Of a stretch of 64,000 nt of DNA, positions 24,701 to 24,770 are shown in pieces (position 1 is the stretch's first letter; each line of letters begins with the position of its first letter). The translations under genes and the position numbers were made by a program. Source of the DNA: Collodictyon triciliatum (lineage: Eukaryota); NCBI GenBank assembly GCA_043381765.1, contig JBHJMP010000834.1, positions 1-64,000 of the forward strand, written 5' to 3'. Under the pieces are notes generated by a model. It saw only the letters and a list, made by a program, of their open reading frames with translations. It made no database searches and was not told the origin of the DNA.

Positions 24701-24770
24701 GTTTAATAAGAACATAACAAGCAACTTTCATTGCATTATGCTCTAGACGAAACTTTATTTTGTCTTATTA
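24701..24770 (-). mobile_element. 3' fragment of trans-spliced cox1 group II intron 2 (DV, no DVI)
   Basis: DV GAGCATAATGCAATGAAAGTTGCTTGTTATGTTC (24743-24710) followed by only TTATTAAAC before the exon. Confidence 0.9.

Follow-up and report, generated by a model that had tools for sequence, protein, structure and literature searches.

Trans-spliced cox1 intron 2 in a protist mitochondrial DNA lacks domain VI and begins with one extra nucleotide

The second intron of the cox1 gene in the window (the whole 64,000-nt stretch of DNA that was analysed) is divided between opposite strands, retains a canonical domain V (DV), carries no domain VI (DVI) and starts with a single A ahead of its GUGYG-like motif. 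Exons 2 and 3 are 24 kb apart, and trans-splicing of the intron between these opposite-strand exons, as put forward in the initial annotation, was upheld by protein P0002 and ten more proteins that span the junction. The intron is proposed to be a degenerate bipartite group II intron of a Diphylleia/Collodictyon-type protist, which would have descended from an ordinary IIB-like intron found at the same codon position elsewhere; DVI with its branch-point adenosine would have been deleted during this descent.

The window is mitochondrial DNA, with bacterial-type LSU and SSU rRNAs, 18 tRNAs and further ORFs of the nad, cox, atp and rps/rpl groups, sdh2, nad10 and a ccmF-like gene (gene names were read from the translations). 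Its G+C content was ~43% (average of the G+C profile). cox1 consists of four exons located on both strands (Table 1); its 5' part precedes trnD and nad2, its middle part follows rpl2, and its last exon is reached ~5 kb further on, past nad1. Neither piece of intron 2 contains an ORF.

Table 1. Positions of the cox1 exons and of the elements assigned to cox1 intron 2 in the window (/, splice junction; H, candidate intermolecular helix; DI-DIV, domains I-IV)
Feature	Positions	Strand	Evidence or remark
cox1 exon 1	47187-47600	+	exon mapping to P0002
cis intron between cox1 exons 1 and 2	47601-48543	+	class not assigned
cox1 exon 2	48544-48866	+	ends ...TTT TGG TT; equals P0002 residues 139-245 exactly, plus first two bases of codon F246
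First nucleotide of cox1 intron 2, A before GUGYG-like motif	48867	+	follows from junction TGGTT/C
GGGCGAC of cox1 intron 2	48868-48874	+	sequence
Helix H, candidate 5' strand	48868-48902, core 48868-48890	+	best duplex partner of invariant pre-DV block
Rest of 5' flank to trnD (50152); may hold DI-DIII	48903-50151	+	mostly unique sequence
Proposed DIV 5' strand, ACGAAAC	49923-49929	+	7 Watson-Crick pairs with 24753-24747, -6.4 kcal/mol
Invariant pre-DV block, 29 nt	24744-24772	-	29/29 identical in L003, L010 and L005; candidate 3' strand of intermolecular helix
Domain V of cox1 intron 2	24710-24743	-	Rfam, fold, 34/34 nt same in three relatives
3' tail of cox1 intron 2, 9 nt, UUAUUAAAC	24701-24709	-	ends AC; 9/9 same in three relatives; replaces DVI
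cox1 exon 3	24288-24700	-	starts C TTT GGA CAT; equals P0002 residues 247-383 exactly, plus split codons
cox1 exon 4	18923-18487	-	exon mapping to P0002

Two in-frame junctions between exons 2 and 3 were considered, TGGTT/C (WFFGHP; intron A-GGGCG...AAAC) and TGGTTA/TTT (WLFGHP; intron GGGCG...AACC). P0002 (529 aa, JGI) was found by searching with exon 3 for longer proteins, and its source contigs are at most 2140 nt long. Its residues map exactly and in order on the four cox1 exons in 527 of 529 cases, the other two being encoded by split codons (F246 = TT/C, H384 = C/AC). An ORF of this kind cannot be colinear with the genome and P0002, which was read as protein only, therefore probably derives, judged by its sequence, from spliced RNA. 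In an alignment to solved COX1 chains, exon 2 covered residues 133-240 of 7jro_a and exon 3 began at residue 241, so that codon 240 alone spans the junction and no residue is missing. WFFGHP (as LFWFFGHP) was present in 11/11 fetched junction-spanning proteins (P0002, P0003, P0004, P0243, P0244, P0246, P0248, P0249, P0253, P0254 and P0255), among them the annotated Diphylleia rotans COX1 (P0243). The junction that had been predicted, TGGTT/C TTT GGA, was thus borne out at the protein level by all 11 sequences, P0002 among them, and the alternative TGGTTA/TTTGGA (WLFGHP) was excluded at the same level by F246 of P0002. P0003 was considered as a splicing intermediate and rejected; it joins exons 1-3 and diverges after VVA, with a tail unlike L010.

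With this junction, intron 2 begins AGGGCG; GUGYG is not at position 1, and the splice site lies 1 nt upstream of GGGCG. The single extra A before the GUGYG-like motif, also part of the initial annotation, is fixed by the P0002 junction. The group II 5' consensus is GUGCGAC, with which the window's GGGCGAC agrees in 6/7 positions.

The 3' piece had been described as a canonical DV (24743-24710) followed by 9 nt and exon 3, and Rfam, folding and sequence agreed with this arrangement. The DV fold consisted of a lower stem of 9 bp, which starts with GAGC (AGC triad), and an upper stem of 5 bp, with a bulge of 2 nt between them and GAAA as the loop. Intron 2 scored 35.6 bits (E 4e-5; gathering score 40) with Rfam model RF00029, which comprises DV and DVI, and 32.1 bits (E 2.7e-5) with the DV-only model RF04356. 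In the RF00029 alignment the DV half was placed at full posterior probability and the DVI half was pushed into the exon with non-standard pairs; the score stays below the gathering value only because no pairing is available to the model's DVI half. Nucleotides 24709-24701 (TTATTAAAC) fill the whole gap between the end of DV (24710) and the start of exon 3 (24700), and the 3' end ...AAAC satisfies the AY rule. A DVI helix with a bulged branch-point A is absent: merely 9 nt separate DV from exon 3, which leaves no space for the domain, as had been claimed. The pattern 'DV 3' half, ≤30 nt, FGHPEV codons' occurred once in the window and 0 times in 100 shuffles.

Metagenome contigs were scanned for the same pattern, which yielded 10 loci. 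Four of these (L001, L004, L008 and L009) were rejected as not being cox1 introns, three (L003, L010 and L005) belong to relatives of the window, their shared regions being 90-95% identical to it, and three (L002, L006 and L007) come from other organisms, which have an ordinary intron at the same cox1 site. Across the 29-nt pre-DV block, DV and the tail, 72/72 nt were identical to the window in all three relatives. As the tail (9/9) and DV (34/34) are both unchanged, the constraint on the tail is as strong as that on DV. In L005, the most distant of the relatives, the first 153 nt of exon 3 were identical at 145/153 positions (5% differ) and the next 28 nt upstream of the invariant block at 15/28. 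The rpl2 stop codon of L005 lies ~85 nt upstream of DV, so the 3' piece is at most ~128 nt long unless it overlaps rpl2; the very short 3' piece that had been postulated was confirmed in this form, with a 72-nt invariant core and a distance of no more than ~128 nt between rpl2 stop codon and splice site. For the 5' piece, P0122 (a read-through ORF on a relative's NCBI contig) ends with WLGRLCSLL and a stop as in the window and differs in its upstream, intron-1-derived part; conservation therefore also extends over the first ~24 nt of the intron.

L003, L010 and L005 also carry a cis intron inside exon 3 (window site 24546/24547, minus strand; ~1.1 kb in L010, positions 3347-4463, and ~0.3 kb in L005, positions 1235-1547). 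This intron is absent from the window, which has instead the cis intron between exons 1 and 2.

The intron of L002 is a 2.8-kb cis intron inserted at the identical nucleotide, in phase 2 (...TTC TGG TT/GTGCGCC...GTCTAT/T TTT GGT CAT), with an RT ORF, a DV and a 23-nt DVI whose bulged A is located 7 nt before the 3' splice site; L006 and L007 have a 3' end of the same type, with one exon base before the FGHP codons. The L002 intron shares with the window the insertion point TGG TT/Y TTY GGN and a DV of the 34-37-nt type with a GAAA loop. It differs in being cis-spliced, in starting with GUGCG, in containing an RT ORF within DIV and in its short DVI, which has a bulged A and a 7-nt spacer, whereas the window has A+GGGCG against GUGCG at position 1 and nothing in place of DVI. 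From these sequences, the Diphylleia-type cox1 intron 2 is best read as a derivative of an L002-like intron.

For the splicing of intron 2 the following course is proposed. The 3' piece (29-nt strand, DV and 9-nt tail) would probably be transcribed behind rpl2, and the 5' piece would start with one extra A before GGGCGAC. The two RNAs would associate by base pairing involving the invariant block beside DV; DV would supply the catalytic centre, and the exons would be joined exactly at TGGTT/C. In step one the 5' splice site would be hydrolysed with the aid of proteins such as the putative maturase encoded within the cox2 intron, and step two would be guided by the conserved tail. That the first step is hydrolysis with protein help is held with moderate confidence and by analogy with other introns; as a branch helix is absent, hydrolysis is the most likely route. 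A branch adenosine cannot be presented in the canonical way when the DVI helix is missing. Yeast aI5gamma introns from which DVI was removed by engineering retain splicing, by hydrolysis. Against this reading of the first step, the 5' end of cox1 intron 3 in the window is odder still, yet that intron has kept a DV and a normal DVI (Rfam 49 bits), the bulged A of which lies 7 nt before the 3' end; loss of branching therefore does not necessarily follow from an altered 5' end.

Branchless introns of fungal rRNA genes keep a DVI helix, whereas in the window the whole DVI is gone, the host gene is cox1, and the intron is in two pieces and has no ORF. The passages of PMC4424553 on fungal mitochondrial rRNA IIB1 introns (Li et al. 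2011) describe a lost branch site and splicing 1-33 nt upstream of GUGYG. Intron 2 is like these introns in its 5' splice site upstream of a GUGYG-like motif, at a distance of 1 nt, and in the loss of the branch site, DVI being absent; it is unlike them in that they are described there as cis-spliced introns of rRNA genes, mostly with LAGLIDADG ORFs. An altered IBS1-EBS1, the loss of EBS2 and a IIB1 fold also characterise the fungal introns. Several plant mitochondrial introns without a bulged A are, according to the relevant text of PMC4513849, released by first-step hydrolysis. Those introns (nad1 i2, nad4 i2, nad1 i1 etc.) resemble the one in the window in being organellar, in part trans-spliced and devoid of a usable bulged A; they are presented there as protein-dependent and as released in the form of linear molecules (PMC4513849). 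They differ from intron 2 in that, in the same description, the DVI stem-loop is retained and merely the bulge is missing or unused (PMC4513849). A search of open-access text gave no relevant report of natural introns lacking DVI.

Persistence of branching, which would give a Y-shaped product, is considered unlikely. It would be achieved if a tail adenosine (e.g. A24707, 7 nt from the 3' splice site) were presented by a trans helix or a protein, in an arrangement that would resemble U2 and the spliceosomal branch site. The tail, with 9/9 nt invariant in three relatives, is more conserved than a spacer needs, and A24707 stands at about the usual distance between branch point and 3' splice site (the spacer of IIB1 introns is 7 nt; PMC9294222). 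The 5' flank contains two possible pairing partners for the tail: GGUUUAAGG (48927-48935), which would bulge A24707, and UUUAAUAA (49939-49946), which gives 8 perfect pairs and lies 9 nt downstream of the proposed DIV stem. However, such matches are no more frequent than by chance, since TTTAATAA occurs 23 times in the window (predicting ~0.2 in the flank) and GTTTAAKR was observed 15 times against 17 expected; the 8-bp version, moreover, leaves no bulged A and in combination with the proposed DIV stem needs a crossed (pseudoknot-like) topology. Hydrolysis thus remains the preferred first step.

The pieces had initially been joined by a 7-bp DIV stem (49923-49929 with 24753-24747), and this part of the annotation was not supported. 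The stem reaches -6.4 kcal/mol, falls outside the 11 best partners of the pre-DV block and covers 7 of the 29 invariant nt; about one 7-mer match near DV is expected by chance in the 1285-nt flank (estimate). When the flank was scanned against the 29-nt block, the best partner was the intron's own 5' end, not a DIV position. This duplex (helix H) has a core of 48868-48890 with 24772-24745 at -17.2 kcal/mol, composed of the pairings GGGCGA with UCGUCU, CUUUGU with AUAAAG, and GCUUAUUAUA with UAUAAUAAG(A)C. The runner-up in the flank reached -11.9 kcal/mol, which puts the H core ahead by more than 5 kcal/mol, and 6 of 12,783 genome windows reached -16 kcal/mol. Extended to 48902 and 24784, H was calculated at -23.5 kcal/mol, a value reached by 0 of 1000 shuffles of either strand and matched or beaten by at least 10 unrelated windows among 10,660 scanned genome-wide. 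In the co-fold, H stacks directly on DV, and A48867 alone separates it from the 5' splice site; the inner end of H falls on the edge of the invariant block. In these models the most likely partner of the invariant block is the intron's first 23-35 nt, and the earlier-proposed 7-bp stem is the weakest of the pairing candidates.

Three points speak against H. The GGGCGA motif, taken as the 5' catalytic consensus, would be sequestered, and as H buries this motif, H and an extra nucleotide before GUGYG cannot both describe the active state. The 5' strand also has a cis competitor, 48868-48878 with 49775-49785 (11 bp). A further candidate partner of the block, 49402-49418 (-11.5 kcal/mol), is located at a DIV-like distance. 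No H-like pairing of the 5' end of intron 3 with its own pre-DV region was found (-11.5 kcal/mol). Two other candidates were discarded: the strongest gapless complement (14 bp, 49640-49653 with 24979-24966), which lies within the dispersed repeat of a 64-nt stretch absent from L003 and L010, and the output of RNAduplex for the whole flank, a giant structure without meaning. The 64-nt stretch (25003-24940, minus strand) contains a GC-rich repeat (CCCGCTTCGCTCTG); repeats of this type give rise to strong yet spurious complementarity between distant transcripts.

The 5' flank from exon 2 to trnD comprises 1285 nt and folds with an MFE z-score of -2.35. With permissive thresholds Rfam gave no relevant match in it, and in the canonical L002 intron, used as a control, likewise showed DV-DVI only; because Rfam misses DI-DIV even in that intron, the lack of Rfam matches means little. 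Sensitive blastn of the flank against the L002 intron and the 5' parts of the window's other introns returned repeat-like matches or matches with E>0.08 only. Candidate exon-binding sites in the flank, such as AGCCA in the loop of the hairpin 49357-49386, were none above chance (~10 EBS1-like 5-mers are expected in the flank, by estimate). Scans of genome-contig and viral-contig collections yielded no 5' pieces of relatives, and a spurious ORF from the flank matched no protein when searched. DI-DIII may lie in this flank.

A quite improbable alternative is that intron 2 consists of little more than a bimolecular helix and DV, with a 5' piece of ~35 nt, a 3' piece of ~85-130 nt and no DI-DIII, exon binding and the rest of the ribozyme being supplied in trans by another mitochondrial RNA, e.g. 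the nearly complete cox2 intron RNA or a free-standing, snRNA-like transcript. This would fit H, which accounts for the whole invariant 29-nt block, leaves only A48867 between itself and the 5' splice site and stacks on DV; it would also fit the rpl2 stop codon ~85 nt upstream of DV in L005 and the failure of Rfam and blastn to recognise DI-DIII in the flank. A possible supplier is the 5' piece of the cox2 intron, with DV-DVI and a 544-codon ORF (10174-11805) that may be a maturase, by analogy with D. rotans. Set against this are the stretch from exon 2 to trnD, which at 1285 nt and with mostly unique sequence provides room for DI-DIII, the blindness of Rfam to DI-DIV even in a canonical intron, the GGGCGAC at the 5' end, which looks like a retained cis consensus, and the moderate significance of H. 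In addition, the layout of cox1 intron 3 is ordinary: ~900 nt after its 5' splice site there is a trans helix of 13 bp (23382-23359 with 19140-19115). An intron 2 with DI-DIII in its 5' flank is therefore preferred.

There is next to no chance that the true junction is TGGTTA/TTTGGA (WLFGHP; cDNA TGGTTATTTGG), with an intron that starts GGGCG without the extra nucleotide and ends CC, as F, not L, is present in the 11 junction-spanning proteins, canonical introns at this site likewise leave one exon base before the FGHP codons and the intron would end CC rather than AY, although this junction would put GGGCG at position 1 and the EBS1-like UAGCCAA (49196-49202) could pair through the A.

That group II-like introns of D. 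rotans cox1 are spliced in trans is already published; RT-PCR products across the junction were sequenced and exon ligation was thereby proved, as reported in the text of Kamikawa et al. 2016 (PMC4779616). That work located DV beside the cox1 fragments and modelled six stem-loops, with the break in DIV (PMC4779616). In its main text, 'lariat' and 'hydrolysis' have 0 occurrences, 'branch' is used in the phylogenetic sense only and the single 'Domain VI' concerns cox2/nad3 (PMC4779616). As described there, cox1 of D. rotans is split as in the window (5' part before nad2, middle part behind rpl2, last part beyond nad1); its mtDNA is 62,563 bp long with 34.4% G+C (PMC4779616). The window is longer, has ~43% G+C and carries its cis intron in a different exon. 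COX1 of D. rotans (P0243) and COX1 of the window fall into the same 90% cluster.

Spliceosomal introns are presumed to descend from group II introns, and it is a long-standing question how much of a group II intron can be taken apart without loss of function in vivo. In intron 2, DV is perfectly conserved, DVI is wholly lost and the intron is spread over two RNAs, one of ~70-130 nt; the cox1 mRNA is still joined precisely in several related protists. It offers a natural system for the choice of the 3' splice site without DVI, for whether hydrolysis suffices in vivo for an essential gene, and for what RNAs or proteins stand in for the missing parts. If the six-domain model published for this lineage was drawn with a DVI, it would be corrected. 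The reduced intron with parts supplied in trans, if true, would represent an extant intermediate between group II introns and spliceosome-like machinery, along the 'five easy pieces' route.

Further observations were made on the other introns of the window. cox1 intron 3 (24287-24274 and 19078-18924, minus strand) must start with GGAAAAAGUGUCAG and has a GUGUC motif 7 nt inside the intron, its junction GCG C/AC TTC being fixed by the essential His and by P0002. Two blocks of its 5' piece (23415-23525 and 23821-23861, minus strand) were 78-85% identical in L005 by blastn and may mark a functional core; besides these, only the first 31 nt of the 5' piece were conserved in L005 (blastn). A DV-like sequence (AAGCCGTATGCGG...) with a non-GNRA loop, unreported by Rfam at the gathering threshold, is located at 1075-1130 (plus strand), just upstream of nad3 exon 2. 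The 5' exon of cox2 (8684-9118, plus strand) is followed on the same strand (9115-11802) by GUGUG, the 544-codon ORF and a DV-DVI (Rfam 46.7 bits), and the cox2 3' exon lies at ~32520 on the other strand, ~21 kb away; the cox2 5' piece is an almost complete intron, and the break therefore falls in or after DVI.
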